A stretch of 34,763 nucleotides of DNA from Candidatus Magasanikiibacteriota bacterium (GTDB taxonomy: Bacteria; Patescibacteriota; Patescibacteriia; Magasanikbacterales; GWA2-37-8), in NCBI GenBank assembly GCA_036170335.1, contig JAVHOZ010000065.1, forward strand, positions 524 through 35,286, in the 5' to 3' direction. The notes below the pieces were generated by a model that made no database searches, had not been told where the DNA came from, and worked only from the letters and a program-made list of their open reading frames with translations. This document shows positions 1-13,608 of this stretch, in pieces (position 1 is the stretch's first letter; each line of letters starts with the position of its first letter). Both the position numbers and the translations under genes were made by a program.

Positions 1-244
1 GCGTCGACGGCAAGGACGGCAAGAATGGCACCAACGGCACCAACGGGACCGATGGTGTCAACGGCACCAACGGCAAAGACGGTGCAACAGGCGCCAACGG
101 GACCAATGGCAAGGACGGCGCCAACGGTGCGAACGGCACCAACGGCGTCGACGGCAAGGACGGCAAGAATGGCACCAACGGCACCAACGGGACCGATGGC
201 GTCAATGGCACCAACGGCAAAGACGGTGCAACAGGCGCCAACGG
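1..244 (+). repeat. 144-bp tandem duplication (16 Gly triplets, 48 aa) inside the collagen-like region
   Basis: gcgtcgacggcaaggacggcaagaatggcaccaacggcaccaacgggaccgatgg... at 1-100 recurs at 145-244 with only two substitutions seen by eye (ggtgtcaac versus ggcgtcaat). Confidence 0.85.
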
Positions 245-839
245 CGCCAACGGTAAGGACGCGCAGCCCTGCTCTGTCAGCCTCTCGGCGGACGGTTGCA
301 AGGTCAGCATCATCTGCCCGCTTTCGTCCGTCATCTACGCCGTGCCCTGTGGCAGCGCCGATGCTGGCAGTTCCGACACGAGTTCGGCAGATGCTGGAAG
401 CACCGATGCTGCCAGCGCCGACGTCGCCGCCGACATCACCGCTACCGACATCGCAGCCGACACCACAGTGGTGGCGGCGTTCAAGGCTGATCTCAGCTTC
501 ATTTCGCCAGTCGCGGCAGAAATCCACGTGTACTACAACGTGGACCAAGCCGATCCGGCCAAGAGCTCTGAGTCCAGTGGCCTCGCGCCGCTGGCTATCA
601 GTCTGAACATTGTCCAGGCTTGTCTGGGCTTTGACGGTGTCGACATTGCTGTCCGCACTCCGACCGCCCCAATGGTCTGGTGGTGTGGAATCGGCGACGG
701 AACGCCGAGCAAGTCGCAGATTGCGGTGAAGGTCAACGGAGTGTTGGTGGCCCCAACGTTCCAGATCGAACCACAAGCCTGCAGCGGAGGACAGGAGGGC
801 AACCTTCACCTCAGCAAGGCCCAACTCGGCTGTCCGTAA
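3..839 (+). CDS. Collagen-like (Gly-X-Y) repeat protein, C-terminal part; the 5' end lies outside the window
   Basis: Frame 3 is open from the window edge to TAA at 837-839. Positions 3 to about 257 translate as uninterrupted X-Y-Gly triplets (VDGKDGKNGTNGTNGTDGVNGTNGKDGATGANG...). An Asp/Ser/Ala-rich linker follows (SADAGSSDTSSADAGSTDAASADVAADITATD), then a non-repetitive Cys/Trp-containing C-terminal domain. Track ORF 342-839 is only the part after the first in-frame Met. Confidence 0.8.
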   Translation, partial: VDGKDGKNGTNGTNGTDGVNGTNGKDGATGANGTNGKDGANGANGTNGVDGKDGKNGTNGTNGTDGVNGTNGKDGATGANGANGKDAQPCSVSLSADGCKVSIICPLSSVIYAVPCGSADAGSSDTSSADAGSTDAASADVAADITATDIAADTTVVAAFKADLSFISPVAAEIHVYYNVDQADPAKSSESSGLAPLAISLNIVQACLGFDGVDIAVRTPTAPMVWWCGIGDGTPSKSQIAVKVNGVLVAPTFQIEPQACSGGQEGNLHLSKAQLGCP

Positions 840-894
840 AGAAGTATTCCGCTTCACCCGGTTTTCACACCAACCGGTCTAACAAAAAAGTGAA

Positions 895-1130
895 GGTTTT
901 TCGCACCTTGTGTAAAAGCGAACGTTAGAGTGCGTTGATGGAACGCGCCCTACGATAGGCCATTTCGGCCAGCCATGTTCGTCGGCGAGAGATCGCTAGC
1001 GGATCGGTTCACCGGGGCACGCAAGTGCCCCACCATCTTGAATTCATAATCCCGATTGTGAGTTGAAGATGGAAATATAACTATCTCCATGACAAAAAAT
1101 ATCACCCTTCTCTCGGGTGATTTTTTGTTT
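895..1130 (+). repeat. 3' module copy A: shared left arm (about 895-958), 110-nt GC-rich insert (959-1068), shared right arm with hairpin and terminator (1069-1130)
   Basis: 911-958 (tgtaaaagcgaacgttagagtgcgttgatggaacgcgccctacgatag) matches 1930-1977. 1069-1130 (atggaaatataactatctccatgacaaaaaatatcacccttctctcgggtgattttttgtt) matches 1978-2037. The segment 959-1068 is absent from copy B and contains the hairpin ggggcac-gcaa-gtgcccc at 1014-1031. Confidence 0.85.
1101..1128 (+). terminator. Intrinsic terminator after the collagen-like gene
   Basis: Stem atcaccc (1101-1107) pairs with gggtgat (1115-1121). A T-run follows and an A-run precedes. Confidence 0.75.
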
Positions 1131-1157
1131 TGTATGTTTCTCGAACAATACAAGCGA

Positions 1158-1186
1158 TAGACAAAAAACATAATTTATGTTATATT
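1158..1186 (+). promoter_or_regulatory. Putative sigma70-type promoter for the HEPN/NTase pair
   Basis: TAGACA (1158-1163), 17-nt spacer, TATATT (1181-1186), about 22 nt upstream of the ATG at 1209. Confidence 0.45.
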
Positions 1187-1208
1187 TTATCTGACCTATC
1201 AACATATT

Positions 1209-1619
1209 ATGTCAGAAGAGTTAAATATTAATAAAGTAATAAAATATTGGTTGGAAACAGCTAAACATGACTTTGAAACAATGTCCGGTTTGTATAAAAT
1301 AAAACGTTATTCTGATTCTCTTTTTTTCGGTCATATTGTTTTGGAGAAAATTTTAAAAGCTCACGTTGTTGCCACCACAAATGATCACGCTCCTCGTTTG
1401 CACGATTTGGCCAGATTGAGCGTGTTGGCCAAAATTAATTTAACAAAAGAACAACTAATATTTTTAAAACAAGTTAGTGATTTTAATATTGCCACTCGTT
1501 ATCCGGATTTTAAGTTTAATTTTTATAAAAAATGTACACCAAAGTTTACCAAAGAATATTTAGATGAGATCAAAAAGATATATTTTGAATTATGTCAAAA
1601 GTTGAAGCCAAAAAAATAA
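1209..1619 (+). CDS. HEPN domain protein (putative toxin partner of a HEPN/minimal-nucleotidyltransferase module)
   Basis: 136 aa. Pattern A..D......L......S.LFFGHIVLEKILKAHVV....HDLARL....ATRYPD matches the classical HEPN fold signature (helix with EK.LKA, HDL, C-terminal RYP). It overlaps the downstream NTase gene by 28 nt. Confidence 0.8.
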   Translation: MSEELNINKVIKYWLETAKHDFETMSGLYKIKRYSDSLFFGHIVLEKILKAHVVATTNDHAPRLHDLARLSVLAKINLTKEQLIFLKQVSDFNIATRYPDFKFNFYKKCTPKFTKEYLDEIKKIYFELCQKLKPKK

Positions 1620-1903
1620 TCCAGCAGTATATTCAAGTATTAAGAACAAATGGTTTTAAAATCACTTCTGTTTATCTTTTTGGTTCTATGATAAATGGAA
1701 AATCAACCAAGTATAGTGATATTGATGTGGCGGTAGTTACTCAAAAGAAAGGAAACCACAATCAAGATCGTCGACGTTTGTTTTTGGCTGGTCTACAGGT
1801 AGATAATAGGATTGAATCACATTTATTTTCAAAAAAAGATTTCTCGGATATTAACAATCCCTTGGTGTACGAAATTCGTAAAACCGGGATAAAAATACTG
1901 TAA
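1592..1903 (+). CDS. Minimal nucleotidyltransferase (MNT / NTP_transf_2-like), partner of the HEPN protein
   Basis: 103 aa with the pol-beta-type NTase motif LFGSMINGKSTKYSDIDVAVV (G-S ... D-x-D). Translationally coupled to the HEPN gene. Confidence 0.8.
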   Translation: MSKVEAKKIIQQYIQVLRTNGFKITSVYLFGSMINGKSTKYSDIDVAVVTQKKGNHNQDRRRLFLAGLQVDNRIESHLFSKKDFSDINNPLVYEIRKTGIKIL

Positions 1904-1910
1904 TATAATA

Positions 1911-2037
1911 TCACGACCTTGCTTCTTAGTGTAAAAGCGAACGTTAGAGTGCATTGATGGAACGCGCTCTACGATAGATGGAAATATAACTATCTCCATG
2001 ACAAAAAATATCACCCTTCTCTCGGGTGATTTTTTGT
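1911..2037 (+). repeat. 3' module copy B (uninterrupted version of 895-1130), including the terminator
   Basis: accttg...tgtaaaagcgaacgttagagtgcattgatggaacgcgctctacgatag is joined directly to atggaaatataactatctccatgac...atcacccttctctcgggtgattttttgtt. The junction lies between 1977 and 1978. Confidence 0.85.
2010..2037 (+). terminator. Intrinsic terminator after the HEPN/NTase pair
   Basis: Stem atcaccc (2010-2016) pairs with gggtgat (2024-2030), followed by a T-run. Sequence is identical to the terminator at 1101-1128. Confidence 0.75.
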
Positions 2038-2053
2038 TATCCACAGTTTAGCG

Positions 2054-2082
2054 TTGGTTTGTGGGGTAAAAAGGTGTATAAT
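2054..2082 (+). promoter_or_regulatory. Putative promoter for the AbiEi/AbiEii pair
   Basis: TTGGTT (2054-2059), 17-nt spacer, TATAAT (2077-2082). Confidence 0.45.
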
Positions 2083-2125
2083 ATGAAGGTATACGTTTCT
2101 GTTTTTTATTATTTTTAATAATAAA

Positions 2126-2752
2126 ATGAAATATGATGATCTAGAAAATAGCTTATTTAAGCAAAAACCAGTTTTTGATGCCAAAGATATCAAATTGGCT
2201 GGTTTTCGTGTTTTTCCTTATCAATTTAGTTATTGGGTTAAAGATGGAAAAATTAAAAAATTGGCTAATGGTTTTTATGCTTTTGCTAAAGCTGAAATCA
2301 AGACAGAGTATATAGCCAATTTATTACAGCAGCCTTCTTATATTTCATTACAATATGCTTTATATTATTACAATTTAATAGTGGATATTCCGTTTCATAT
2401 CACTTCTGTCACCACCAAAAATACTAGAAAAACAAAAGTTGATGACGCGGTTTATTTTTATCAACATGTTAAGCCATCACTATTCAACGGTTTTGTGATA
2501 GCAGGTAGTCAAGAAAAAATAGCTGGAAATTCATTTATGATTGCCACTCCCGAAAAAGCATTGGTGGATTTGTTTTATTTAAATCCCACACGTTTCAAAG
2601 TTGAAAGTGATTTTTTTGAGGCACGTTTTCATGAAGATGAAATGAAGAAAAAAATTGATTGGCGCGGTGTTTTTAATATAGCCGCTTTGTACAAGAATAA
2701 AAATTTAGAAAAAAGATTACACAATTTTAAAAATTACATTTTTTCCAATTGA
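2126..2752 (+). CDS. AbiEi-like antitoxin / transcriptional regulator (type IV TA, abortive-infection AbiE family)
   Basis: 208 aa. The N-terminal segment (FDAKDIKLAGFRVFPYQFSYWVKDGKIKKLANGFYAF) looks like the AbiEi winged-helix domain. It sits directly upstream of, and is coupled to, an AbiEii-type NTase gene. Confidence 0.7.
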   Translation: MKYDDLENSLFKQKPVFDAKDIKLAGFRVFPYQFSYWVKDGKIKKLANGFYAFAKAEIKTEYIANLLQQPSYISLQYALYYYNLIVDIPFHITSVTTKNTRKTKVDDAVYFYQHVKPSLFNGFVIAGSQEKIAGNSFMIATPEKALVDLFYLNPTRFKVESDFFEARFHEDEMKKKIDWRGVFNIAALYKNKNLEKRLHNFKNYIFSN

Positions 2753-2754
2753 TT

Positions 2755-3537
2755 ATGATGAATTTGGAACAAATTATTTTATTTTCCAAAGAAACCGGGT
2801 TGCCGTCTGGTCGTGATAAACAAGCTTTGGCTGAGTATTTACAGTGTATTATTTTGCAGATAATTGCCAATAGTGACTTTGTTGATAAATTAAGCTTTAT
2901 TGGTGGCACTAGTTTGAGATTTTTTTATGGATTACCTAGGTTTTCTGAAGATTTGGATTTTGATAATTTTGGATTATCTCAGGATAATTTTACCAAATTA
3001 ATAAATGTAGTGAGTAAAAATCTCATCAATCAAGGTTTTGTAGTTGAATGTAGTATCAAGATAAAAGGTGCGTATCATTGTTATGTTCGATTTGATAATT
3101 TATTATTTCAAAATAAACTGTCGTTGCATGCTAACGAAAAAATATTGGTAAAAATTGACACGGTACAACAAGATTTTACTGTTCAAAAAGATCATAAGTT
3201 TTTTAATCGATATGGTATTGTAGAGGAAATGAATATTAATTCACTCGATATTTTGATGGCACAAAAAGTATTGGCTATTTTGGGTAGAAAGACTTCCAAA
3301 GGTAGAGATTTTTTTGATTTTACTTTTTTGGATGGTTTGACCAAACCAAATCTGAATTATTTAGATCACAAGATAGGTATCAAGACTATGTCACAGCTCA
3401 AAGAGCGTTTGTTGCAACGTTGTGCCGAAGTTGATTTTAAAGAAATGGCGCGCGACGTGGAACCGTTTTTATTTAATCACGATGACGTGATCCGGATTAC
3501 CAAATTTCCACAATATATTACGGGGTGGAATGTATAG
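2755..3537 (+). CDS. AbiEii/AbiGii-family nucleotidyltransferase toxin (DUF1814-like)
   Basis: Hallmark motif FIGGTSLRFFYGLPRFSEDLDFD. The track start at 2749 is TTG; the first ATG is at 2755, 3 nt after the AbiEi stop (2750-2752). Confidence 0.8.
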   Translation: MMNLEQIILFSKETGLPSGRDKQALAEYLQCIILQIIANSDFVDKLSFIGGTSLRFFYGLPRFSEDLDFDNFGLSQDNFTKLINVVSKNLINQGFVVECSIKIKGAYHCYVRFDNLLFQNKLSLHANEKILVKIDTVQQDFTVQKDHKFFNRYGIVEEMNINSLDILMAQKVLAILGRKTSKGRDFFDFTFLDGLTKPNLNYLDHKIGIKTMSQLKERLLQRCAEVDFKEMARDVEPFLFNHDDVIRITKFPQYITGWNV

Positions 3538-3554
3538 TTTTGAAAACTAAAAAT

Positions 3555-5003
3555 ATGTTTAAAAAATCCAGACAAGACAATCACCCCAATTTGCTGTTTC
3601 CGCGGTTGTCGCCTTGGGAGCAGGAGTTTACTTTGGGGGCGGGGGCGATTTTGTTGTTTTGGTCGTTGTTGTTGCTTTTGCCGTTGCAGTTGTTTGTGAG
3701 TTTTGGTTTGGTGTTGCTGGGCTTGTTTTTGGTGACCGCTTTTATTTTTAAACTTGAATTACTTTTTTATATTTTAACCACAGTTTCTTTTTTTACCGGT
3801 TGGGAAATTTCTTTTTCCAAATATGAATGGGCGAGAAATATTGTGTATCTATCTTCGGTCAATGCACCACTGGGAGATTTTATCGGAGCGATGTTGTTGG
3901 GGTTGTCGACGCTCGCGATTGTTTTTGGATTTTTGCATCCCGCTTGGAAAGATAAAAAAATATTATTAAAAGTTTCTGGTTGGTATAGTTTGTTTTTGGT
4001 GTGGTCGTTGGTTTGCGCATTGCTGGCAATGGATCATAATTGGATAATCAGTTTAAAATATCTGGTGCGCAATATGTTGTTTGTCTATTTGGCGTTTGTA
4101 ATTTTGCCGGTGATTTTGATAGACAAATTAGACACGATAAAAAATATTTTAAAAATTTGGTTTGGGGTGGGGTTGTTGACGGCACTATTTGGTTTTTCTT
4201 CGCTATACTTTTTTGCGCAGAGCGGTTGGCCGCGGGTGACGCCGTATGGTATCGCTGGGTTTGCTCCGTTGGGATACAATCACAATTTGATCGCGGAGAT
4301 GCTGGTAGTGGTTTTACCGGCCGGTCTGTATTTATTTTTTAAAGCTAAAAACAAGCAACAAAAACGATGGTATTTTTTTGGATTGATTTTTACACTGCTC
4401 GCGGCGTTGTTGACATTGTCGCGCGCGGCGTGGATTACTATTTTTGCGCAATTAGCGGTGTTGGGAGTGGTGTATTTTTCGCAGGTAAAGACTATTTTAA
4501 AGAAAATTAGTCATCTCAATTTTTATTTGTTTTTAGTGGGGTTGATATTGTTTGGATATATGATTTTCTTTTTGACTTCACCGATCGTGCATAGTTCAAA
4601 CAGTTCACGTTTTGCGATGACCGACATTTCATTTTTTATGGCCAACCGTTCACCGCTTCATGGCTATGGTCCGGGGATGTTTATGGAGATACTTGGCAGC
4701 GTGCGCGATTGGACTCAGGAATATGGCGATGCGCTGGATTCACATGGTATTGTGCAGAAGATAATTGTCGAGGACGGCTATGTTGGATTAATTTTTATTT
4801 TATTATTTTTTGTTTATTTATTTAAAAAATTGTGGTTGGTATATCGGATGTCGGATGATAAAGAATTATATATGATATTATTCATGTCAGCGGTAGGGGC
4901 GGTGGTGTTTCAATTTTTCAACACTTCATATTTTGTCAGTGTGATGTGGTTGCCAATTGGTTTGGCCTTGAGCGCCGCGACATTATTGAAAAAAGATTTG
5001 TAA
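3555..5003 (+). CDS. O-antigen ligase / Wzy-like polytopic membrane protein
   Basis: Many predicted TM segments plus the Wzy_C-like motif LLTLSRAAWITIFAQ. The track start at 3525 overlaps the AbiEii stop; the ATG at 3555 (MFKKSRQ) avoids the overlap. Either start is possible. Confidence 0.7.
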   Translation: MFKKSRQDNHPNLLFPRLSPWEQEFTLGAGAILLFWSLLLLLPLQLFVSFGLVLLGLFLVTAFIFKLELLFYILTTVSFFTGWEISFSKYEWARNIVYLSSVNAPLGDFIGAMLLGLSTLAIVFGFLHPAWKDKKILLKVSGWYSLFLVWSLVCALLAMDHNWIISLKYLVRNMLFVYLAFVILPVILIDKLDTIKNILKIWFGVGLLTALFGFSSLYFFAQSGWPRVTPYGIAGFAPLGYNHNLIAEMLVVVLPAGLYLFFKAKNKQQKRWYFFGLIFTLLAALLTLSRAAWITIFAQLAVLGVVYFSQVKTILKKISHLNFYLFLVGLILFGYMIFFLTSPIVHSSNSSRFAMTDISFFMANRSPLHGYGPGMFMEILGSVRDWTQEYGDALDSHGIVQKIIVEDGYVGLIFILLFFVYLFKKLWLVYRMSDDKELYMILFMSAVGAVVFQFFNTSYFVSVMWLPIGLALSAATLLKKDL

Positions 5004-5006
5004 TAT

Positions 5007-6071
5007 ATGCAACATATTGTACAGGTGATACCGGCATTGGGATACGGGGGAGCCGAACGGTTGGTGGTGGATCTTGTTAATCATAGTGATAGCGCGAAAT
5101 ATCGATTTACGGTAATTGTTTTTTTTGATAATTTGCCGCTGAAGTCGTTGATTGAAAAAAAGGCCAATGTTATTTTGATAGAAAAAAAATCCAAATTTGA
5201 TTTTAGTTTTTTAAATAGATTGGAGAAAAAATTAGTGGAGTTGAAACCGGATCTTGTGCATGGACATCTTTTTGCCGGAGATTTTTGGGGACGACTCGCG
5301 GCCCATCGGTTGAGTGTGCCATATTTGAGTACTGAACACAATCTGAATTACGACGACGGTTGGTTGAAAAATTTTGTGAAAAAAATGGTGTCCAGTGAGC
5401 AAGATTATTTTGTGGCTTGTTCTTTGACGGTGTCGGATTATATGCGTACGGTTTATAATATTAAAAATGAAATCAGAGTAATATCCAACGGTATTGAATT
5501 GAATCGTTTTACCAATTTAACACCAATCACTTGGCACAACCCGCTGCGGTTTTTGATGATTGGCCGGTTGACAAAACAAAAAGGTCAGTTGGTAGCTTTG
5601 TCGGCCTTGAAGAAAATTACCAATCATCATTGGCATTTGACAATAGTAGGGTCGGGGATTGAGAAAAATAATTTGCTGGATTTTGTTAGAAAAAATAATT
5701 TACAAGATAGGGTGGAATTTGTGGAACCTTTGGTTCGGGTGGAAAAATATTTTGGTGAAGCGGATGTTTTTTTGATGCCCTCTGTTTGGGAGGGTTTGGG
5801 TGTGGTAGTGATGGAAGCAATGGCTAGTGAGCGAGTGGTGTTGGTGTCCAAAACCGGTGGACTGACGGAGCTGATTCAAGATCAAGAAACCGGTTATTTT
5901 TCAAAACCACAAAATATTTTGGATTGGGAGAAAAAAATAAAATATATTATTGAAAATAAAAACGAAGCACATCGATTGGCCAAAAATGCCAAAATTTATG
6001 CCAAAGAAAATTTTGGTGTTAAAAAAATGATCGAAAAATATGATAAGGTTTATTCTATAATTATACAATGA
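5007..6071 (+). CDS. Glycosyltransferase, GT4 (GT-B fold) family
   Basis: N-terminal GYGGAERLV motif and C-terminal E-x7-E region (PSVWEGLGVVVMEAMASERVVLVSKTGGLTELI). Confidence 0.85.
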   Translation: MQHIVQVIPALGYGGAERLVVDLVNHSDSAKYRFTVIVFFDNLPLKSLIEKKANVILIEKKSKFDFSFLNRLEKKLVELKPDLVHGHLFAGDFWGRLAAHRLSVPYLSTEHNLNYDDGWLKNFVKKMVSSEQDYFVACSLTVSDYMRTVYNIKNEIRVISNGIELNRFTNLTPITWHNPLRFLMIGRLTKQKGQLVALSALKKITNHHWHLTIVGSGIEKNNLLDFVRKNNLQDRVEFVEPLVRVEKYFGEADVFLMPSVWEGLGVVVMEAMASERVVLVSKTGGLTELIQDQETGYFSKPQNILDWEKKIKYIIENKNEAHRLAKNAKIYAKENFGVKKMIEKYDKVYSIIIQ

Positions 6072-6094
6072 TTCCCGTTTTCGCGGGAATGACA
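6070..6094. repeat. Single unit of the GTCATTCCCG...CGGGAATC palindromic repeat family
   Basis: gattcccgttttcgcgggaatgaca, with a 7-bp stem attcccg/cgggaat. It overlaps the last base and stop codon (6070-6071) of the GT4 gene and fills most of the spacer before the radical SAM gene. Confidence 0.85.
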
Positions 6095-6110
6095 ATTATT
6101 GCAAAAAAAT

Positions 6111-7103
6111 ATGAATACAAAAATGCCAATAGACTGTGTCTTGGCACTGACTTACGACTGCAATGCGCGTTGTACGATGTGTGATATTTGGAAAATAAAA
6201 GATTCTCCGGCCTTGTCTTTGACGGATTTGGCCAAATTACCCGATAGTCTTTTGGATGTGAATTTATCCGGTGGGGAACCATTTTTGAGGAAAGATTTAC
6301 CGGAAATTGTGGCGGTGATAAAAAAGGCTTGTCCAAAAGCGCGCTTGGTAATTTCTTCCAACGGATTTTTGACGCTGGTAATAAAAAAAGCGATGACGGA
6401 AATTTTGAAAATCGCACCCGACATTGGAGTGGCTTTTTCGATTGATGGTATCGGACAGATGCACAATGAGATGCGTGGCATACCGGGTGGTTTTGACAGG
6501 GTGATGGATTCGCTCAAACTGCTCAAAAGTATGGGCATGACCAATCTGCGTTTGGCTTTCACGATTACCGAATACAATGTGAATCATTTTGCCAAAGTTT
6601 ATGATTTGGCGCAGGAGCTGGGTGTGCAATTTACTCATAGTTTTGCTCAAAGCAGTGAATTTTATTTTGGTGGTAAAAAAAATATAAACAACCCGCGTAA
6701 AGATTTGCTGGAAGTGGCATACAAATATATTATCAATAGTGAACTGAAAAGTTGGAATGTGAAACGCTGGCTACGTGCTTATTTTGCCAATGGTATGTTT
6801 CGATTTATTACCAGTAAAAATCCGGTGTTGGACAATGCTCCGGGACGTGATTTTTTCTTCATCGATCCTAGTGGCGATATTTATCCATCGGTGATGCACA
6901 ATGTGATACTCGGAAATATTTCTCAAGTTGATGATTTTGCAAAATTTTGGCAAAGTGCAGAGGTGGAGGAAAAACGCAAAAAAGTAGATGAGTTGAAAAT
7001 GCCGGTTTGGATGATCTGCACTGCGCGTACAGCCATAAAAAGTCATCCGCTCGCAGTCGGTTGGTGGATTTTGAAAAATAAAATATTTGGATATAAATCG
7101 TAA
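6111..7103 (+). CDS. Radical SAM enzyme
   Basis: CX3CX2C cluster motif in LALTYDCNARCTMCDIWK and a downstream GGEPFL SAM-binding motif. The track start at 6099 is TTG; the first ATG is at 6111. Confidence 0.8.
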   Translation: MNTKMPIDCVLALTYDCNARCTMCDIWKIKDSPALSLTDLAKLPDSLLDVNLSGGEPFLRKDLPEIVAVIKKACPKARLVISSNGFLTLVIKKAMTEILKIAPDIGVAFSIDGIGQMHNEMRGIPGGFDRVMDSLKLLKSMGMTNLRLAFTITEYNVNHFAKVYDLAQELGVQFTHSFAQSSEFYFGGKKNINNPRKDLLEVAYKYIINSELKSWNVKRWLRAYFANGMFRFITSKNPVLDNAPGRDFFFIDPSGDIYPSVMHNVILGNISQVDDFAKFWQSAEVEEKRKKVDELKMPVWMICTARTAIKSHPLAVGWWILKNKIFGYKS

Positions 7104-7104
7104 C

Positions 7105-7166
7105 TGTCATTCCCGTGTAAACGGGAATCCAGAATTAATTAGATTCCCGTTTACACGGGAGTGACA
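7105..7166. repeat. Inverted pair of GTCATTCCCG...CGGGAATC units
   Basis: tgtcattcccgtgtaaacgggaatc (7105-7129), 12-nt spacer, gattcccgtttacacgggagtgaca (7142-7166). It fills the gap between the radical SAM stop and the GT4 start. Confidence 0.85.
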
Positions 7167-7172
7167 AAAAAT

Positions 7173-8372
7173 ATGAAAATAGTGTTAGTAAATAAATTTT
7201 GGTATGCGCGCGGTGGAGCGGAGAAAATCGCGTTATTAACCAAAGAGTTGCTGGAAAAAGCCGGACATCAGGTGAAGATTTTTGGTATGAATCATCCGGA
7301 CAATTTGTTTTCCAATAAATATTTTACGGATTTTGTAGATTATAAAAATTTGGGATTGTTGGCGAAAATAAAATTTGGCGCGCGTGTGATTTATAATGCT
7401 CAAGCCAAAAAGAATTTTGAGAAGTTACTGTCGGATTTTGCTCCGGACGTTGTGCATTTTCATAATATTTATCATCAGCTATCTTGTTCGGTGATTGAAG
7501 CGGTGGCGGAGAAAAAAATAAAATCAGTGATGACTTTGCACGATTACAAATTTATTAGTCCCAATTATAATTTGTATCATCATGGGAAAATTTCTGAGTG
7601 TGGGGTAAATGGAAAATATTATCAGTGTCTTTTGTCCGATTGCATGGAAAATTTTTCCGATAGTCTATTGGCGACGTTGGAGGCGTATTTTGTAGCTTGG
7701 AAAGGTTACAAAAACATGATAAATAAATTTATTAGCCCTAGTAATTTTTTACGTGATAAATTTGTTAAAGCGGGATTTATTGCCAAAAATATTTTGTATT
7801 TGCCAAATGCGATTGAGAATAATAATTTTAAAATGAATTCCGGCGATCTTGATTATGTCGCTTATGTCGGCCGGTTGTCTAGTGAAAAAGGATTAAAATA
7901 TTTATTGGGAGCAGCGGGGAAATTATCTAGTATTAGATTTGTAATAGTGGGCGACGGACCACAACGAGCTGAGTTGGAAAAAATAAAAAATGCCAATCAA
8001 CTAGATAACGTTGAATTTGTCGGACAAAAAAGCGGCGTAGAATTGCAGAGTTTGATTGCTGGTGCTCGTTTGTTGGTGTTACCATCGGTCTGGTATGAAA
8101 ATGCTCCGTTGAGTATTTTGGAAGCGAAAGCGCATGGCAAGATTGTAGTGGCTAGTGATATTGGTGGAATATCGGAAATTTTGCCAAAAGAATTGTTGGT
8201 AAAACCGGCCGATGCGATTATTTTAGCGCAAAAAATCGATGAATGGTTTAATAAAAACGAAACCGAACGTCAATCGATGAGTGAAAGATTGTTTGGCCAA
8301 GCTAGCGCTGAAAATAGACCGGAAATATATTTGCAAAGATTGTTAAAAATTTATTCAGATTTATCCAGTTAA
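7173..8372 (+). CDS. Glycosyltransferase, GT4 family
   Basis: MKIVLVNKFWYARGGAEK N-terminus and C-terminal PSVWYENAPLSILEAKAHGKIVVASDIGGISEI (E-x7-E). The track start at 7161 is GTG inside the repeat; the ATG is at 7173. Confidence 0.85.
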   Translation: MKIVLVNKFWYARGGAEKIALLTKELLEKAGHQVKIFGMNHPDNLFSNKYFTDFVDYKNLGLLAKIKFGARVIYNAQAKKNFEKLLSDFAPDVVHFHNIYHQLSCSVIEAVAEKKIKSVMTLHDYKFISPNYNLYHHGKISECGVNGKYYQCLLSDCMENFSDSLLATLEAYFVAWKGYKNMINKFISPSNFLRDKFVKAGFIAKNILYLPNAIENNNFKMNSGDLDYVAYVGRLSSEKGLKYLLGAAGKLSSIRFVIVGDGPQRAELEKIKNANQLDNVEFVGQKSGVELQSLIAGARLLVLPSVWYENAPLSILEAKAHGKIVVASDIGGISEILPKELLVKPADAIILAQKIDEWFNKNETERQSMSERLFGQASAENRPEIYLQRLLKIYSDLSS

Positions 8373-10351
8373 TGAAAAATTTTTTTTACAGATCAATCAC
8401 CGCAATTTTTATTGGCCTATTTGTGTCGGTATTTTGTTATTTTAGTTATTTTGCCAAGTCGGCGCCGATTTTGGCCAATTATTATCTGCGTTGGGATTTG
8501 CCGTCAAGTGAAATTGAAAATTTGGCCAAATGGGATTTGTTAATTTTGGATATGGAAAATCAGGTAACCAATCCGGAAAAAATAAAAAAAATTCGTCAGT
8601 TGCATCCCGGGATAAAAATATTGGCCTATGTGACTTCGCAAGAAATAAAAAATGGACAGCTGGGCACGATGCGCGCCAAATTAAAAAGTGGTATTAGTGA
8701 CAGTTGGTATTTACGTCGCAGTAATGGTGAAAAAATTTCTTTTTGGCCTGGCACAACGATGCTCAATCCGACAGATGTGTGTCCGATAAGTAATGGCCAA
8801 CGCTGGAATGATTATCTGGCCAGTTTTATGAACAACGAAGTTCTTTCTACTGGTTTGTGGGATGGGATTTTTTATGATAATGCTTGGGGTGATCTGACTT
8901 GGTTTTCCGGCAACAATGTGGATCTGAATTTGGATGGTCAACCGGATAGCGATATCAACAAACATTGGAATGCCGGTATGACAAATTTATTCAACATGAC
9001 GCGTGATTTATCGGGTGCGAATTATGTGATTGTCGGCAATGCGATGACACGTGAGTATGCCAATAATCTCAACGGTATGATGTATGAAAATTTTCAAAAC
9101 CATGTGTGGCGCGATGTAATGTATGCGATAAAAACAGAGATGAATGGCAATTTGCGGCCGCGAATTATTATCATCAATGGCAATACCAATAATACCGGCA
9201 ACAAACAGAGTTACCAAAATATGCGCTATGGTTTGGGGAGCGCACTAGTTGGTGGGGCGTATTTTTCTTATGATGATGGTGATCAAAGTCATAGCCAAAC
9301 TTGGTGGTACGATGAGTATAATGTGAAGCTGGGAAATCCGGTGGGTGAAGCTAGTACTATGGATGGTAATACTTTGATTACTGAAGATGTCTGGCGTCGT
9401 GATTATGAAAACGGTTTGGCCTTGGTAAATTCTACTGGCAATGAGCAGACAGTAAATTTGGGCAATGATTATGAAAAAATTATCGGAAAGCAAGATCCGG
9501 CGATAAATGATGGATCGATAGTCGACAGAGTAAAAATAAATTCGCGCGATGGTTTGGTGTTGCGCAAAGTAGTACAAAATCTTTTTGGTGCGTCTTTTAA
9601 AAATGGTAGCTTGGTGAGATTTTATGATGTGCGTGGCCAGAGAGTGCGTAATGGTTTTTTTGCTTTTGTACCGGATGTGGCTGGTGGTGCGCGTGTGTTT
9701 GTGGGTGATTTGAATGGTGATGGTAGTAATGAGCGAGTAGTCGGTGGGGCTGGGCGTTTTGAAATTTTTAATTCGGCCAATTTGCATTGGTTTGATAGTT
9801 ATCCCTTTGGTGGAAATAATTCCAAAGAATTGCGTTTTAGTGTAGGCAAAAGTTTGGCTGGTGAAGTGAAAATTTTGCTAACACCGACGGTTGGCAATCG
9901 GGCGGTTTTGTATGATTATCATGGTGAAGTTATCAAAGAAGATTTTTTGCCATTTGGTTCAAAATATAATGCTGGTTTTTATGGGGCGCTGGGAAATTTT
10001 AGTGGTGGCTCGAATCTGGAAGTGGCGATTGGTTCGGGTGGGGTGAGAGTGGGGGAGGTGTTGGTATTTGATGCGGATTTACAAAAAATAAAATATCGGT
10101 TTTTTCCATTTGATAAAAAATATTTTGGTAGAATAAAAGTAGCAGCCGGAGATGTCGATGGCGATGGCAAGGCGGAGATAATCACGATGGGAAAATTTGG
10201 AGCAAAAAATGTGGTGCGAATTTTTGACAATAAAGGTAAAAAATTGTCGGAGTTTTTGGTTAATAGTCAGTTTGGTGGGGCAGATTTGGGTATTGGTGCT
10301 ACTGATGTGAATTTTGATGGGAAGGATGAAATAGTGATGGATGGGGGATAG
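8372..10351 (+). CDS. Membrane-anchored or secreted protein with C-terminal FG-GAP/VCBS-like repeats; the N-terminal half may be a glycoside-hydrolase-like TIM-barrel domain
   Basis: N-terminal hydrophobic segment (ITAIFIGLFVSVFCYFSYFA). Repeated Ca-binding-like motifs GDLNGDGSNERVVG, GDVDGDGKAEIIT and TDVNFDGKDEIVM. The N-terminal domain call is weak and rests on recollection of GHL-type families only. ATG overlaps the upstream stop (TAATG). Confidence 0.6.
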   Translation: MKNFFYRSITAIFIGLFVSVFCYFSYFAKSAPILANYYLRWDLPSSEIENLAKWDLLILDMENQVTNPEKIKKIRQLHPGIKILAYVTSQEIKNGQLGTMRAKLKSGISDSWYLRRSNGEKISFWPGTTMLNPTDVCPISNGQRWNDYLASFMNNEVLSTGLWDGIFYDNAWGDLTWFSGNNVDLNLDGQPDSDINKHWNAGMTNLFNMTRDLSGANYVIVGNAMTREYANNLNGMMYENFQNHVWRDVMYAIKTEMNGNLRPRIIIINGNTNNTGNKQSYQNMRYGLGSALVGGAYFSYDDGDQSHSQTWWYDEYNVKLGNPVGEASTMDGNTLITEDVWRRDYENGLALVNSTGNEQTVNLGNDYEKIIGKQDPAINDGSIVDRVKINSRDGLVLRKVVQNLFGASFKNGSLVRFYDVRGQRVRNGFFAFVPDVAGGARVFVGDLNGDGSNERVVGGAGRFEIFNSANLHWFDSYPFGGNNSKELRFSVGKSLAGEVKILLTPTVGNRAVLYDYHGEVIKEDFLPFGSKYNAGFYGALGNFSGGSNLEVAIGSGGVRVGEVLVFDADLQKIKYRFFPFDKKYFGRIKVAAGDVDGDGKAEIITMGKFGAKNVVRIFDNKGKKLSEFLVNSQFGGADLGIGATDVNFDGKDEIVMDGG

Positions 10352-10411
10352 ACCTATTACCTTGAATTTTTATAGTCATTTTTTTGGCTAAAATTAGCCC
10401 ATGCTAGACCA

Positions 10412-10440
10412 TTGACAAATGGTCGTTTTTGTGCTATGCT
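10412..10440 (+). promoter_or_regulatory. Putative promoter with extended -10, upstream of GC-rich gene 2
   Basis: TTGACA (10412-10417), 17-nt spacer ending in TGC, TATGCT (10435-10440). This implies a leader of about 300 nt before the ATG at 10750. Confidence 0.5.
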
Positions 10441-10503
10441 ATGTAGTTATTCTGTGCAAGAATAATGACTGAATTTAGCTTTTTTCAAATCAAACGAATA
10501 CTT

Positions 10504-10612
10504 ACCTGCGTGGAAGTAAACACATGTCATTCCTAATATTGTCATTCCAGTGAAGCTTGTCCTCACGAAAGTGGTGAACGGGAATCTAAGATGTTTTTAC
10601 TCCCATGCAGGT
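10504..10612. mobile_element. MITE-like 109-bp element: 22-bp terminal inverted repeats enclosing degenerate GTCATTCC...GGGAATC units
   Basis: acctgcgtggaagtaaacacat (10504-10525) versus the reverse complement of 10591-10612 (acctgcatgggagtaaaaacat): 19 of 22 matches. The interior carries gtcattcc twice and cgggaatc once. Confidence 0.6.
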
Positions 10613-10749
10613 TCTAGCATTGGGAGGTGGTTGCCTAGTTGGTAACAGTCCTTCCCAGTGTTGGGTAAAATTCGTCAGTGTTAGCGCAACTTTTTCGTCT
10701 TGTCAGAGGTAACCAACCCATCTGCACAGGACATGCTCTGGAGGATACC

Positions 10750-11325
10750 ATGACGGAGAATACCTACACCGGTCCGAACATCGATTCGGAGAAGAAGTTT
10801 TTTGGCGCCGGCGCTCCGATGAGTGGCGGACTGTTCGTCGCGATTGGCTTGGCGGTGGTGGCGGTGGTTTTGGCCATCGTCGGCATCAACATGGCCAACA
10901 ACGCCGACACCCACGCCACTTCGATCGAGAAGTCGGTCAGCAAGCTGGGCGATGCGCATGACGCGCTCGCCAAGTACGTCCATGAGGAGCACGACTGGGT
11001 CGTCGCTCGGCTCGCGACGAAAGCCACGGCGACGACGGTCGACGAAGCGATCGCGACTCTGACGGCGAAGGCCGACAAGAGCGTGGTCGACAAGTTGACC
11101 GAGGAGTTGAAGACGAAAGCGTCTAGCTCCACCGTCACGAGGCTGGCCAGCGATCTCCTGATGAAGGCTGACGCGCAAGCGGTCAAGCGGATCGCGCGGC
11201 GAGTTCAAAAGATGGACACGCGTGTCAACAATCTGGTTGACTTGAACAAGTTGATCGAGGTTGCTCCCGCTGCTCCGCCCGCAGCCAAGCCGCCGCTTCC
11301 GGCCGCGGCACCGGCTGCCAAGTAG
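10750..11325 (+). CDS. GC-rich membrane-anchored repeat protein (N-terminal TM segment, about 16-aa K-A-D-type repeats, Pro/Ala-rich C-terminal tail)
   Basis: GGAGG at 10740-10744, 5 nt before the ATG at 10750 (the track ORF starts upstream at 10678). TM segment GGLFVAIGLAVVAVVLAIVGI. Repeats LATKATATTVDEAIAT / LTAKADKSVVDKLTEE / LKTKASSSTVTRLASD / LLMKADAQAVKRIARR. Tail APAAPPAAKPPLPAAAPAAK. GC3-rich codons throughout. Confidence 0.75.
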   Translation: MTENTYTGPNIDSEKKFFGAGAPMSGGLFVAIGLAVVAVVLAIVGINMANNADTHATSIEKSVSKLGDAHDALAKYVHEEHDWVVARLATKATATTVDEAIATLTAKADKSVVDKLTEELKTKASSSTVTRLASDLLMKADAQAVKRIARRVQKMDTRVNNLVDLNKLIEVAPAAPPAAKPPLPAAAPAAK

Positions 11326-11460
11326 TCCGTCCCACGCAACGTGGGCATCGTAGTCAGTACACCATGTTTTTTGATGGTGATGACTCGATGAGGACGCAAA
11401 ATCCCCAAAAGGGTGCCTGTGACGCAAGTCACAGGCATACCGCTTAGTAAATAAAATTTG
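11326..11460 (+). other. Conserved structured 3' module (copy 1) between the stop codon and the terminator
   Basis: Hairpins cccacg-caa-cgtggg (11331-11345), caccat-gttttttg-atggtg (11360-11379) and cctgtgac-gcaa-gtcacagg (11416-11435). Invariant 25-mer aggacgcaaaatccccaaaagggtg (11391-11415). Conserved trailer acc-gcttagtaaataa. Homologous to 12420-12552. Confidence 0.7.
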
Positions 11461-11508: not shown

Positions 11509-11520
11509 TTTTTTTTAAAT

Positions 11521-11545
11521 TGTCATTCCCGTGCAAACGGGAATC
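11521..11545. repeat. Single GTCATTCCCG...CGGGAATC unit
   Basis: tgtcattcccgtgcaaacgggaatc in the AT-rich spacer between the two GC-rich genes. Confidence 0.85.
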
Positions 11546-11663
11546 TTATTTTTGACAAAACACATCAATTGTGGTTTTATAGTATCCAGTGCGAATAGTG
11601 GCTAGTTTGGAATTTCCAATCGGCCAGGCTCAATTGGTCAAGTTTTTGGAGGAAAAGAGGAAC

Positions 11664-12419
11664 ATGGATACTCAACCTTTTGTTATTGGTGCTACGGCGC
11701 CTAAACCCCCGGTGTCTGATCCTGACGAAAGTCGTCATGGTCAAGTTCTCGATCTTCAAGAGATGCGTCGGCGTCTGGCGGAAAAGAAGAATCCGACTGT
11801 CAAGGATGCACTTGAAGCGTTGAGTGTTGAACGCGCTCAAACGGACCAGCTGACCATTCGGGTTGCCGATCTGGAGAACGACAAGCTCAAGGACAACAAG
11901 CACTTCGGTGCCAATGTGTCCGAGGTCGCCAAGCCGCTCATCGCTACGGCTGTTCAGACTTCATACCGGAAGATCTGGAGTGTCGCGGTTGTGGCTGGCT
12001 TGGTTCTGCTGGCTGTGGTCACGGTCGGCGTCTGGTCGCATCAGGCACTCAAGTCTCGGGTTTCACTGGTGGAGTACGGTTTGACCGCTAAGGCCGATCA
12101 GGCTCAGGTGGACAAGATCGTGTCTCAACTCACGACCAAGGCGGACAAGTCCGAGCTCAAGGCTATTGAAGCCAAGGCAGACCGCTCGGTTGTCGAACGT
12201 CTCAGCCAAGAGCTCAAGGAGAAGGACGGCGCGCACGACGCACGTCTCAACGATCTGGCCACGGATCTGATGTCCAAGGCCAATCAAGAGGAGGTTGAAA
12301 AGCTCTCCGCTCGTCTGCGCTCAACTCGCTCCAAAATTCGCTCGCTCGAACAGCGGATGAAGGAGTTCTCGACTTCGGTTCCAGCGCCGGCTCCAGCCGT
12401 TCCGCCCAAGACCATGTAG
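11664..12419 (+). CDS. GC-rich membrane-anchored repeat protein, paralog of 10750-11325 with a longer N-terminal cytoplasmic-type region
   Basis: ATG at 11664 is preceded by ggaggaaaagagg (the track start at 11589 is GTG). Central TM segment IWSVAVVAGLVLLAVVTVGVW. Repeats LTAKADQAQVDKIVSQ / LTTKADKSELKAIEA / KADRSVVERLSQE / LMSKANQEEVEKLSAR. Pro/Ala tail VPAPAPAVPPKTM. Confidence 0.75.
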   Translation: MDTQPFVIGATAPKPPVSDPDESRHGQVLDLQEMRRRLAEKKNPTVKDALEALSVERAQTDQLTIRVADLENDKLKDNKHFGANVSEVAKPLIATAVQTSYRKIWSVAVVAGLVLLAVVTVGVWSHQALKSRVSLVEYGLTAKADQAQVDKIVSQLTTKADKSELKAIEAKADRSVVERLSQELKEKDGAHDARLNDLATDLMSKANQEEVEKLSARLRSTRSKIRSLEQRMKEFSTSVPAPAPAVPPKTM

Positions 12420-12552
12420 TCCACCCATGCAATGTGGGCAATGAGATCTGTTTGCTTTGTTTTTGAAAGCGAACTACTCTAGAAGGACGCAAAATCCCCA
12501 AAAGGGTGTCCCGACTTAGTCGGGACTACCTGCTTAGTAAATAATTTTTTTG
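12420..12552 (+). other. Conserved structured 3' module (copy 2)
   Basis: Hairpins cccatg-caa-tgtggg (12424-12438), gtttgcttt-gtttttg-aaagcgaac (12450-12474) and tcccgac-tta-gtcggga (12509-12525). The identical 25-mer lies at 12484-12508. Trailer acc-tgcttagtaaataa. Confidence 0.7.
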
Positions 12553-12610: not shown

Positions 12611-13537
12611 TTATTTACCGGTGATTAAACATACCACTGATCCATCAAATTTCCAATTTTGTTTTATGGCTTGTTGTAATCCAACAATTGCGAGCGCGCT
12701 ATTTGGTGATAATTTTATTTTTTCAGTTTCTTCTACTAGTTTGATTGTATTTTTTATTTGTTGGTCGTCGGCTATCCAACCAAAACCGTGACTGTTTGTT
12801 ATATCGGCGGTTACCATTTCTTTGCGGTGAGCAATGTTATCCACGATTGCGCCGGCCAGTGATGTCTTTGTCATTCCCGCAAAAGCGGGAATCTTGGTTG
12901 TGTCGACAGATTCCCGCTTTTGCGGGAATGACAATAAAAATTTTTCTGTAATCGGATGCACTGCGCTAGTTTGTACAATATGAATTTGAGGATTTAGTTT
13001 TAATTTTTTAAAAGCAGCGTGAAGTCCTTGGGCGGTAGTACCACTGGATGTTGGGATAAAAATTGCCGATAGATTTTTTATTTTATTCAATTCCAGAGCA
13101 AGTTGTTCGTATCCGGTTAGGGCAGTATCATCTATCGACTGGCGTAATATTTTGGCCTTGCCGGATTTGTCGATTTGAAAAGCTGATTGTTTTGGATTTT
13201 TTATTTTTATTAAAAATATATTTTTGGATAATATTTTTGTTAATATTTTTTCTTTGGCTTTGTCAATTTTTTCACCCACAAAAATTTGTAAAGTCAGTTT
13301 GTTTTTGTGTGTCCGATTAAATTTTTTAATATACAAACCAGCGGCCAAAGCGGCATTTCCGGAAGAAGATATTACAAAATTAGCAAGTCCTTGTTTGACA
13401 TAAAAATCTACCATCAGTGGTATAGAACGGCCTTTGTGTGACCCAAGCGGGTGTAAATCTTCTCTTTTGAAGTAAAGAGGCGCTTCCAAACCCAGTGTTT
13501 TAGCCAATTTTTGATGTTTTGTTTGAGGGGTTATCAT
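12611..13537 (-). CDS. PLP-dependent enzyme of the tryptophan-synthase-beta / threonine-synthase-like fold, carrying an in-frame repeat-derived insertion
   Basis: Lys-containing motif EDLHPLGSHKGRS (compare the S-F-K-D-R PLP-lysine motif), a Gly-rich loop FIPTSSGTTAQG and a C-terminal CLITG. The track start at 13549 is TTG; the ATG is at 13537. Residues LSFPQKRESVDTTKIPAFAGMTK are encoded by the repeat pair at 12869-12933. Confidence 0.7.
   Translation of the reverse strand: MITPQTKHQKLAKTLGLEAPLYFKREDLHPLGSHKGRSIPLMVDFYVKQGLANFVISSSGNAALAAGLYIKKFNRTHKNKLTLQIFVGEKIDKAKEKILTKILSKNIFLIKIKNPKQSAFQIDKSGKAKILRQSIDDTALTGYEQLALELNKIKNLSAIFIPTSSGTTAQGLHAAFKKLKLNPQIHIVQTSAVHPITEKFLLSFPQKRESVDTTKIPAFAGMTKTSLAGAIVDNIAHRKEMVTADITNSHGFGWIADDQQIKNTIKLVEETEKIKLSPNSALAIVGLQQAIKQNWKFDGSVVCLITGK
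12869..12933. repeat. Inverted pair of GTCATTCCCG...CGGGAATC units located inside a coding sequence
   Basis: tgtcattcccgcaaaagcgggaatc (12869-12893), 15-nt spacer, gattcccgcttttgcgggaatgaca (12909-12933). The host ORF stays open through it. Confidence 0.85.
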
Positions 13538-13608
13538 AGGTCTTGCCAAAAGTGATTATTTTTGATATACTTGTTTTTGCTTTCGTAATTTAGTTTAATT
13601 ATGCTCTT

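Follow-up and report, generated by a model that had tools for sequence, protein, structure and literature searches.

The left end of a 34,763-nucleotide stretch of DNA from a Candidatus Magasanikiibacteriota bacterium (contig JAVHOZ010000065.1, positions 524 to 35,286 of the forward strand; this whole stretch is referred to here as the window) carries the 3' three-quarters of a genuine gene that encodes a collagen-like protein (window 3-839, plus strand) and that lies in a GC-rich island within AT-rich DNA. The protein belongs to the class of bacterial collagen-like surface proteins, of which it is a variant with a new head domain, a lipoprotein anchor and a polarity reversed compared with the Scl proteins. 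The unexpected part is the GC-rich island itself, which is long-lived in genomes of the ultra-small bacteria of the candidate phyla radiation (CPR, Patescibacteria). The simplest reading is that this island is a long-term resident with a deviant base composition and not a recent arrival. Recent import is disfavored by the conserved position of the gene upstream of a Wzy gene, by a C-terminal domain (CTD) whose divergence tracks that of the host genes, and by synonymous turnover at high GC.

Translation of the window shows that frame 3 is open from base 3 to the TAA stop codon at 837-839, and the remaining two forward frames are interrupted by stops, with frame 1 open for about 200 codons. The protein starts, at the window edge, with a collagen-like region (3-254) of 28 consecutive Gly-X-Y triplets (84 residues) that consist of G, N, T, D, K, A and V only, without any Pro. 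This region matches the Pfam family PF01391 (Collagen) with an E-value of 1.2e-14 and 54.2 bits, above the family cut-off of 27.2, and is part of a tandem repeat (1-261; unit of 144 nt or 48 amino acids, 1.8 copies, 94% match) that is also cut by the window edge. A module with four Cys residues (255-353; KDAQPC-x8-C-x5-C-x10-CG, Cys 90, 99, 105 and 116) immediately follows the triplets. It is succeeded by an acidic low-complexity linker of Ser, Ala, Asp and Thr (354-470; residues 118-156, 39 residues), for which AlphaFold2 gives a predicted local distance difference test score (pLDDT) below 50. The remainder is the CTD (471-836; 122 amino acids), with four conserved Cys (residues 207, 228, 260 and 277), a WWCG motif that contains the Trp pair, and the end EGNLHLSKAQLGCP. 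The GC fraction by codon position is 0.59/0.54/0.75. From the stop codon to about 1050 (roughly 230 nt) it is 0.48-0.56, after which it drops to 0.22-0.35, and a hairpin resembling an intrinsic terminator (1101-1121) with a T-run follows (together 1101-1129; an identical copy is present at 2010-2038). The initial annotation, made from the letters alone, had described an open triplet frame with codons rich in GC at the third position (GC3), an acidic linker, a Cys- and Trp-containing CTD and GC-rich DNA that continues past the stop into an AT-rich hairpin and terminator, and had read this as a collagen-like protein; all of these features were recovered.

The missing N-terminus, which the initial annotation had proposed to seek upstream, was found on an independent contig. 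When 1.84 billion representative proteins were searched exhaustively with phmmer, 28 hits were obtained, of which 27 are related clusters and one (P0019), a repeat protein of eukaryotic type, was rejected as spurious. The last 192 residues of the top match, P0001 (376 amino acids), are 100% identical to the window protein, and its contig, L006, is identical to window 116-1096. P0001 starts with MFNKNTKLIASFIAMLVAMAICGC, a signal peptide that fits a lipobox (...LVAMAICG followed by C), and the frame is not closed upstream; all statements on the N-terminus refer to L006, which extends outside the window. A PROSITE-type lipobox directly behind an N-terminal hydrophobic stretch, that is, a signal peptide ending in [LVI][ASTVI..][GAS]C, is present in 13 family members, and four more have near-matches. 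Judging from these sequences, the window protein is almost certainly exported, and its gene is referred to below as the lipoprotein gene. L006 contains a single copy of the 48-residue collagen unit compared with at least 1.8 in the window, which reflects either a length polymorphism or a collapsed repeat.

Other searches retrieved few relatives. A word-index search of a protein collection with the CTD gave no match, and with the family alignment only two fragments. A scan of the GTDB genomes with the single protein gave no match, and with a five-sequence alignment it resulted in one GTDB genome (of 185,579 species representatives) and two metagenome contigs, one of which is the same record. 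The loci discussed here were obtained from the GTDB scan (L003), a metagenome scan (L005) and look-ups of exact proteins (L007-L016). L003 is a metagenome-assembled genome of Candidatus Magasanikiibacteriota, in the Patescibacteria group. Across the family, the signal peptide and the CTD are constant and the middle part is swapped. P0001 and P0004 have collagen segments with a 4-Cys module after each, whereas P0002, P0003, P0014, P0017 and P0025 have Dicty_CTDC Cys repeats in the middle, and P0007 and P0015 combine collagen and Dicty_CTDC. P0002 and P0003 thus have the signal peptide and CTD in common with the window protein, with Dicty_CTDC in between. MopE repeats are also found among the stalk modules in a Pfam scan.

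The comparison of these sequences indicates that the CTD is the conserved and selected part of the protein and that the stalk is interchangeable between lineages. In the family alignment (A2), Cys51, Gly110, Asn111 and Cys121 are invariant and further Cys, Trp and Gly positions are near-invariant. The domain ends in EGNLxLSxAQLGCP, of which the GNL positions are invariant or near-invariant. The ratio of non-synonymous to synonymous substitution rates (dN/dS) of the CTD is about 0.25 among the three closest orthologues, which indicates that frame 3 is under selection. AlphaFold2, run on the CTD alignment, predicts a beta-sandwich with a pLDDT of 92.9 and a predicted template modeling score (pTM) of 0.87. 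No family was found for the CTD in Pfam or NCBIfam, and a search of PDB sequences with the CTD profile gave noise only. Foldseek comparison of the model with PDB and the viral structures of BFVD resulted in nothing at E <= 0.001 (best E 0.14 and 0.07, respectively; best query-normalized TM-score 0.40), and no C1q/TNF entries were among the top 50 PDB matches. The confident model without a neighbor in PDB or BFVD therefore does not support a C1q/TNF-type head, which had been suggested as a possibility. By these searches, the head domain belongs to no known family and is previously undescribed.

The composition of the gene differs strongly from that of its surroundings. All 26 host genes of the window have a GC3 of 0.23-0.46, compared with 0.62-0.76 in the island genes, and both C-ending codons (0.66 vs 0.22 in host genes) and G-ending codons (0.73 vs 0.24) are enriched. 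In each of the ten loci that were read, the lipoprotein gene has a high total GC of about 0.55-0.75, and its GC3 is 0.73-0.89 in the seven loci measured, compared with 0.32-0.56 in the neighboring Wzy genes. The flanks are AT-richer in most loci (0.30-0.45), and the downstream open reading frames (ORFs) of L010 and L015 are fairly GC-rich themselves (GC3 0.56 and 0.67). Strand asymmetry was also observed to differ: the GC skew of the plus-strand host genes is strongly positive (0.2-0.48 in window 2500-10500) and that of the GC-rich islands is near zero, so the islands are unlike their surroundings in this respect too.

The position of the lipoprotein gene is conserved. A Wzy gene, of the O-antigen ligase type, is located downstream of it in six loci, some of which are very divergent, in the form of a Wzy_C gene in L003, L005, L007/L008 and L013/L014 and a Wzy-like partial ORF in L010, and the lipoprotein gene lies upstream of Wzy in every related locus that extends far enough. 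The two genes adjoin in L005 and L010, and toxin-antitoxin (TA), GIY-YIG or NYN genes intervene elsewhere. Further downstream, the window and L007/L008 carry GT4 and GHL15 genes, and L005 continues in the order Wzy, GT4 and radical-SAM to the end of the contig. In the loci with upstream sequence, a GC-rich island of two or three genes ends with the lipoprotein gene, and upstream GC-rich partners were seen in L003, L005, L007-L009, L011 and L013. The first island gene encodes a transmembrane (TM)-anchored coiled-coil/repeat protein. The second encodes a protein with a signal peptide and a coiled coil, which has a Gly/aromatic-rich C-terminus in L003 (5766-6464), L007 (1482-2456), L011 (879-1787) and L013 (3278-4267). 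Searches of Pfam and NCBIfam with both partners resulted in coiled-coil noise only.

Divergence of the head follows that of the host. In close relatives, Wzy is 81-84%, radical-SAM 87% and the CTD 67-78% identical, and in distant relatives the identities decrease to 22-33% for Wzy and 39-49% for the CTD. Among the three orthologues, the synonymous sites of the CTD have been turned over extensively (proportion of synonymous differences, pS, 0.58-0.79; identity at fourfold-degenerate sites 0.31-0.52), yet the GC content at these fourfold sites (GC4) is 0.69-0.76 in all three genomes, compared with 0.27-0.62 in host genes. Of the features by which recent islands are recognized, the atypical composition is present, and mobility or border features, patchiness and decay of the composition are not; no tRNA, integrase or transposase was found at the island borders in the window. 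The initial annotation had called the gene compositionally foreign, a view that it would have given up for homologs with native codon usage in low-GC relatives. Such homologs do exist, but they use GC-rich codons as well. The label is not supported, given the residence of the gene upstream of Wzy in six loci at a high GC3.

Three accounts of the origin of this island can be compared. A chimeric assembly, or a chance ORF within GC-rich non-coding DNA, could be suspected as the island is located at the end of the contig and long chance ORFs arise in GC-rich DNA, as frame 1 illustrates. However, two independent Logan contigs from other sequencing runs (identical to window 215-1879 and 116-1096 at 100%) cross the stop codon, the 3' untranslated region (UTR) and the junction to the AT-rich HEPN gene, which dismisses an assembly chimera, and the same junction is present in three further loci. 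In addition, the homologs, the dN/dS and the GC3 > GC1 > GC2 pattern all favor frame 3, and this account can be regarded as refuted. A gene acquired recently from a donor of high GC content (such as a Myxococcota-like bacterium or the host of the symbiont) that has not yet drifted to the composition of the recipient would explain the high GC3, the enrichment of both C- and G-ending codons and the rarity of the family, which was matched in a single GTDB species representative. The stalk modules point in the same direction, as Dicty_CTDC, MopE and thrombospondin-3-like repeats are common in GC-rich bacteria; the family contains the first two, and the Asp-rich repeats of P0013 and P0018, recognized by eye, are presumably of the Ca-binding, thrombospondin-3-like type. 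A GC-rich Ser/Thr-kinase gene also adjoins the P0018 gene. Nevertheless, the intergenic DNA of that contig is AT-rich, with a terminator and a sigma-70-like promoter, and no locus has been shown to sit in a GC-rich genome. The constant position and high GC3 in loci with Wzy identities down to 22-33%, the CTD divergence, the maintained GC4 and the borders without mobility genes weaken this account further, and a recent foreign origin is considered improbable.

In the third account, the chances of which are judged a little short of even, the lipoprotein gene and its partners form an old envelope module that Magasanikbacteria-like CPR bacteria have inherited vertically, and its head would be a new fold family for contacting the surroundings. 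The high GC3 of the module would be actively maintained in AT-rich genomes by selection on DNA or mRNA, for example for transcripts that are very stable, strongly structured and expressed at a high level, or by GC-biased gene conversion at a recombination hotspot. If true, the module would be a lasting compositional island of protein-coding genes for which recent horizontal transfer is not the source. More generally, the GC-richness may be held by selection that acts on the DNA or its transcript, by GC-biased gene conversion in a hypervariable locus that recombines, or by repeated replacement from an unseen GC-rich reservoir. Recombination at the locus is hinted at by the mosaic stalk, by a conflict in grouping (CTD amino-acid identity pairs L003 with L005, and host genes pair the window with L003) and by contigs that often break off inside the island or close to it (the window, L007-L009, L011 and L014). 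An explanation by a diversity-generating retroelement was rejected, as the window contains neither a reverse transcriptase nor a pair of template and variable repeats.

With respect to function, the product is probably a lipid-anchored cell-surface fiber with a collagen stalk and a distal head that binds a ligand, which could be a partner cell, a surface or the cell's own glycan layer. The protein would be exported through Sec and then anchored by a lipid at its N-terminal Cys on the outer face of the cell membrane. Next to the anchor would lie a small N-terminal domain with Cys residues, followed by short Gly-X-Y segments that each end in a 4-Cys module, and disulfides formed by these modules may hold a trimeric stalk together. 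Further out, a flexible linker of acidic character would lead to the compact, disulfide-containing beta-sandwich head as the distal binding unit. The length of the stalk can vary through the 144-nt repeat, and its type, collagen or Dicty_CTDC, is exchanged between lineages. The protein may work together with the TM-anchored coiled-coil protein and the secreted coiled-coil protein, beside the surface-glycan genes.

Several observations weigh against this proposal. The lack of Pro in the triplets lowers the propensity to form a triple helix, and the full-length monomer model is confident in the CTD only, with a stalk pLDDT below 50. No characterized relative of the CTD was found in Pfam, NCBIfam, PDB or Foldseek searches. 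Lgt and LspA were not encountered in the family scans of the 34.7-kb window, in which no search was aimed at either. L003 is the sole named locus, and the others are termed CPR-like from gene content and composition alone.

Two other functions have been considered. The three island proteins could be structural components of the envelope that build or tether a wall, an S-layer-like layer or the glycan layer produced by the Wzy/GT/GHL15 genes, with the head bound to the cell's own polysaccharide. This is in line with the constant proximity of the lipoprotein gene to the Wzy cluster and with partner proteins that are coiled coils with membrane or secretion signals, and the structured 5' and 3' UTRs recall S-layer genes, the mRNAs of which are long-lived. 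However, no domain that binds the cell wall, such as SLH or LysM, was detected, and the free swapping of the stalk between close relatives fits an exposed, diversifying molecule better than a scaffold, which makes a structural role rather unlikely. A collagen-like tail fiber from a prophage remnant is far less probable still. PHROG tail and tail-fiber families are matched with E-values of 2e-12 to 1e-5, but these matches are confined to residues 90-190, the Gly-X-Y stretch. The CTD has no phage or viral match in a tblastn search of phages, a scan of viral contigs or BFVD; likewise, searches of viral contigs, phage genomes and plasmids gave nothing beyond similarity at the triplet level. The lipoprotein signal peptide and the lack of any phage genes in the window or the related loci also speak against a tail fiber and come close to refuting it. 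Of the initial reading as a fibrous surface-type protein, with exosporium proteins and tail fibers as known examples, export is supported by the lipobox signal peptide of P0001, and a phage tail fiber is not supported.

The initial annotation had also grouped the collagen-like gene with the two K-A-D repeat genes of the window (KAD1 and KAD2) as parts of a possible common system, and this grouping gained support. KAD1 (10678-11325, plus strand) is a GC-rich gene of the gene-1 type that encodes a TM-anchored coiled-coil repeat protein, and KAD2 (11589-12419, plus strand) is its paralogue (27% identity, E 2e-10). In both proteins, coiled-coil repeats come after a TM segment, as in the product of island gene 1. 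The 5' leader of KAD1 (10499-10677, plus strand) shows homology to that of the first island gene in L003, with 77% identity over 95 nt (blastn, E 6e-11) and 89% over a further 36 nt. In L003, this TM/coiled-coil repeat gene with its KAD1-like leader lies inside the same GC-rich island as the lipoprotein gene. On the basis of architecture and leader homology, the K-A-D genes belong to the lipoprotein module type. A 3' UTR common to the collagen-like gene and the KAD genes was rejected, as no alignment between them was found.

Several known systems resemble the window protein in part. The collagen-like adhesin Lcl of Legionella pneumophila is secreted and has a signal peptide, a collagen repeat with variable copy number and a non-collagen C-terminal head, and its gene is GC-richer than the AT-rich genome in which it resides. 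P0008 matches the NCBIfam Lcl model below threshold through its triplets (32.7 bits vs a cut-off of 500). However, the CTD of the window family is unrelated to that of Lcl by sequence and has no PDB match, and the lipobox anchor, the 4-Cys modules that interrupt the collagen and the conserved multi-gene GC-rich module set the family apart. The streptococcal adhesins Scl1 and Scl2 and the pneumococcal adhesin PclA, all collagen-like, also present a globular domain on a surface-anchored Gly-X-Y stalk, and NCBIfam matches to them are weak (E 1e-11, 44.5 bits vs a cut-off of 325). These proteins have an N-terminal head and a C-terminal LPXTG sortase anchor, whereas the window family has an N-terminal lipid anchor and a C-terminal head. 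BclA, the exosporium fiber of Bacillus that served as a model in the initial annotation, combines a collagen-like repeat that varies in length with a C1q/TNF-like, trimeric beta-sandwich head at the C-terminus. The window protein differs from it in a CTD with no C1q/TNF match in Foldseek, two conserved Cys pairs, the lack of GPT triplets and its lipoprotein nature. Lastly, the variable lipoprotein loci of Borrelia and Mycoplasma share an exchangeable or repeat-variable exposed part, assembly breaks and a conflict between gene and host trees, but the sequences are unrelated, nothing points to a mechanism of switching, and those loci lack persistent GC-richness in an AT-rich genome.

Most CPR cells are thought to live attached to other microbes. 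Little is known about the way in which they make contact with their partners, and descriptions of their surface proteins are few. The locus provides a concrete and conserved candidate for such contact, with a putative lipid-anchored fiber, an exchangeable stalk and an apparently undescribed head, beside surface-glycan genes. In addition, atypical composition is routinely taken as a mark of recent horizontal transfer. Genes that remain 25-40 points above their neighbors in GC3 across lineages with Wzy identities of 22-33% would, if this is upheld, be a clear counter-example and a natural test case for the forces that keep base composition off the genomic equilibrium in bacteria. No published description of the module or of GC-rich islands in CPR genomes was found in the literature.

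The lipoprotein gene is followed by a GC-rich 3' UTR with multiple hairpins (840-1100, plus strand), which L003 and L005 have in conserved form. Over 837-1135, which takes in the stop codon and the terminator, the predicted folding energy is -113 kcal/mol (z = -7.1 compared with shuffled sequences). Double-sided changes occur in 10 of the 72 predicted pairs, a covariation that is suggestive, as it derives from three sequences (the window, L003 and L005). The element was not found in more distant loci with nhmmer, and the UTRs match no Rfam family at gathering or relaxed thresholds. In front of the lipoprotein gene, L006 and L003 have a conserved 5' leader. Together, the structured and conserved UTRs suggest a dedicated transcription unit. 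A minus-strand ORF (950-1171), which is open in L003 too, was rejected as coding; its differences are mostly non-synonymous and form compensatory pairs in hairpins, and it is therefore read as RNA structure.

The KAD genes have a 3' UTR element of their own. It comprises 85 nt, is present once after each KAD gene (11331-11415 and 12424-12508) and is 72% identical between the two copies. Its hairpins show compensatory changes (cccacgcaacgtggg vs cccatgcaatgtggg, and cctgtgac..gtcacagg vs tcccgac..gtcggga), and GGACGCAAAATCCCCAAAAGGGTG inside the element is invariant. Rfam contains no match to the element, and it was not detected at the other loci.

The C-termini of the island gene 2 products (...FRF, ...VRF and ...IWF) resemble the C-terminal signature of beta-barrel proteins of the outer membrane, an unexpected feature in CPR bacteria. 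A protein of 1363-1401 amino acids with host composition and no Pfam match abuts the island upstream in L003 (9-4214) and L005 (1-4092), and it may be part of the same surface apparatus.

The gap between the lipoprotein gene and Wzy is a hotspot for the insertion of small cassettes, which differ by locus. It contains HEPN/MNT and AbiEi/AbiEii genes in the window (840-3537), a coiled-coil ORF and AbiE in L003 (8650-10650), a GIY-YIG gene in L007 (4000-5400), DUF6922/AbiEii and NYN genes in L013 (5650-8900) and no cassette in L005 (8350-8630). The island proteins were not recognized as defense genes by PADLOC. In the window, the HEPN (1209-1619) and MNT (1592-1903) toxin-antitoxin pair is flanked by direct repeats, of which 910-958 and 1929-1977 are 96% identical and 1067-1129 and 1976-2038 are 100% identical. 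The upstream copy has an extra 108 nt (959-1066) that is part of the conserved lipoprotein 3' UTR, and it looks as if the cassette has been inserted or recombined into the UTR/terminator region.

Palindromes resembling repetitive extragenic palindromic (REP) elements (TGTCATTCCCG....CGGGAATC) are dispersed in the intergenic DNA of the window (6065-6095, 7104-7167, 10530-10590, 11520-11546 and 12868-12935). The inverted pair at 12868-12935 lies in frame inside the ORF of a pyridoxal phosphate (PLP) enzyme (12611-13549, minus strand), where it encodes ...SFPQKRESVDTTKIPAFAGMTK..., and is reminiscent of the Rickettsia palindromic elements that are inserted in genes. In L016, two lipoprotein paralogues (P0017 and P0020) are arranged in tandem (331-2709), and the ORF downstream of them is homologous to a small coiled-coil ORF located 3' of the lipoprotein gene in L003 (8711-9079).

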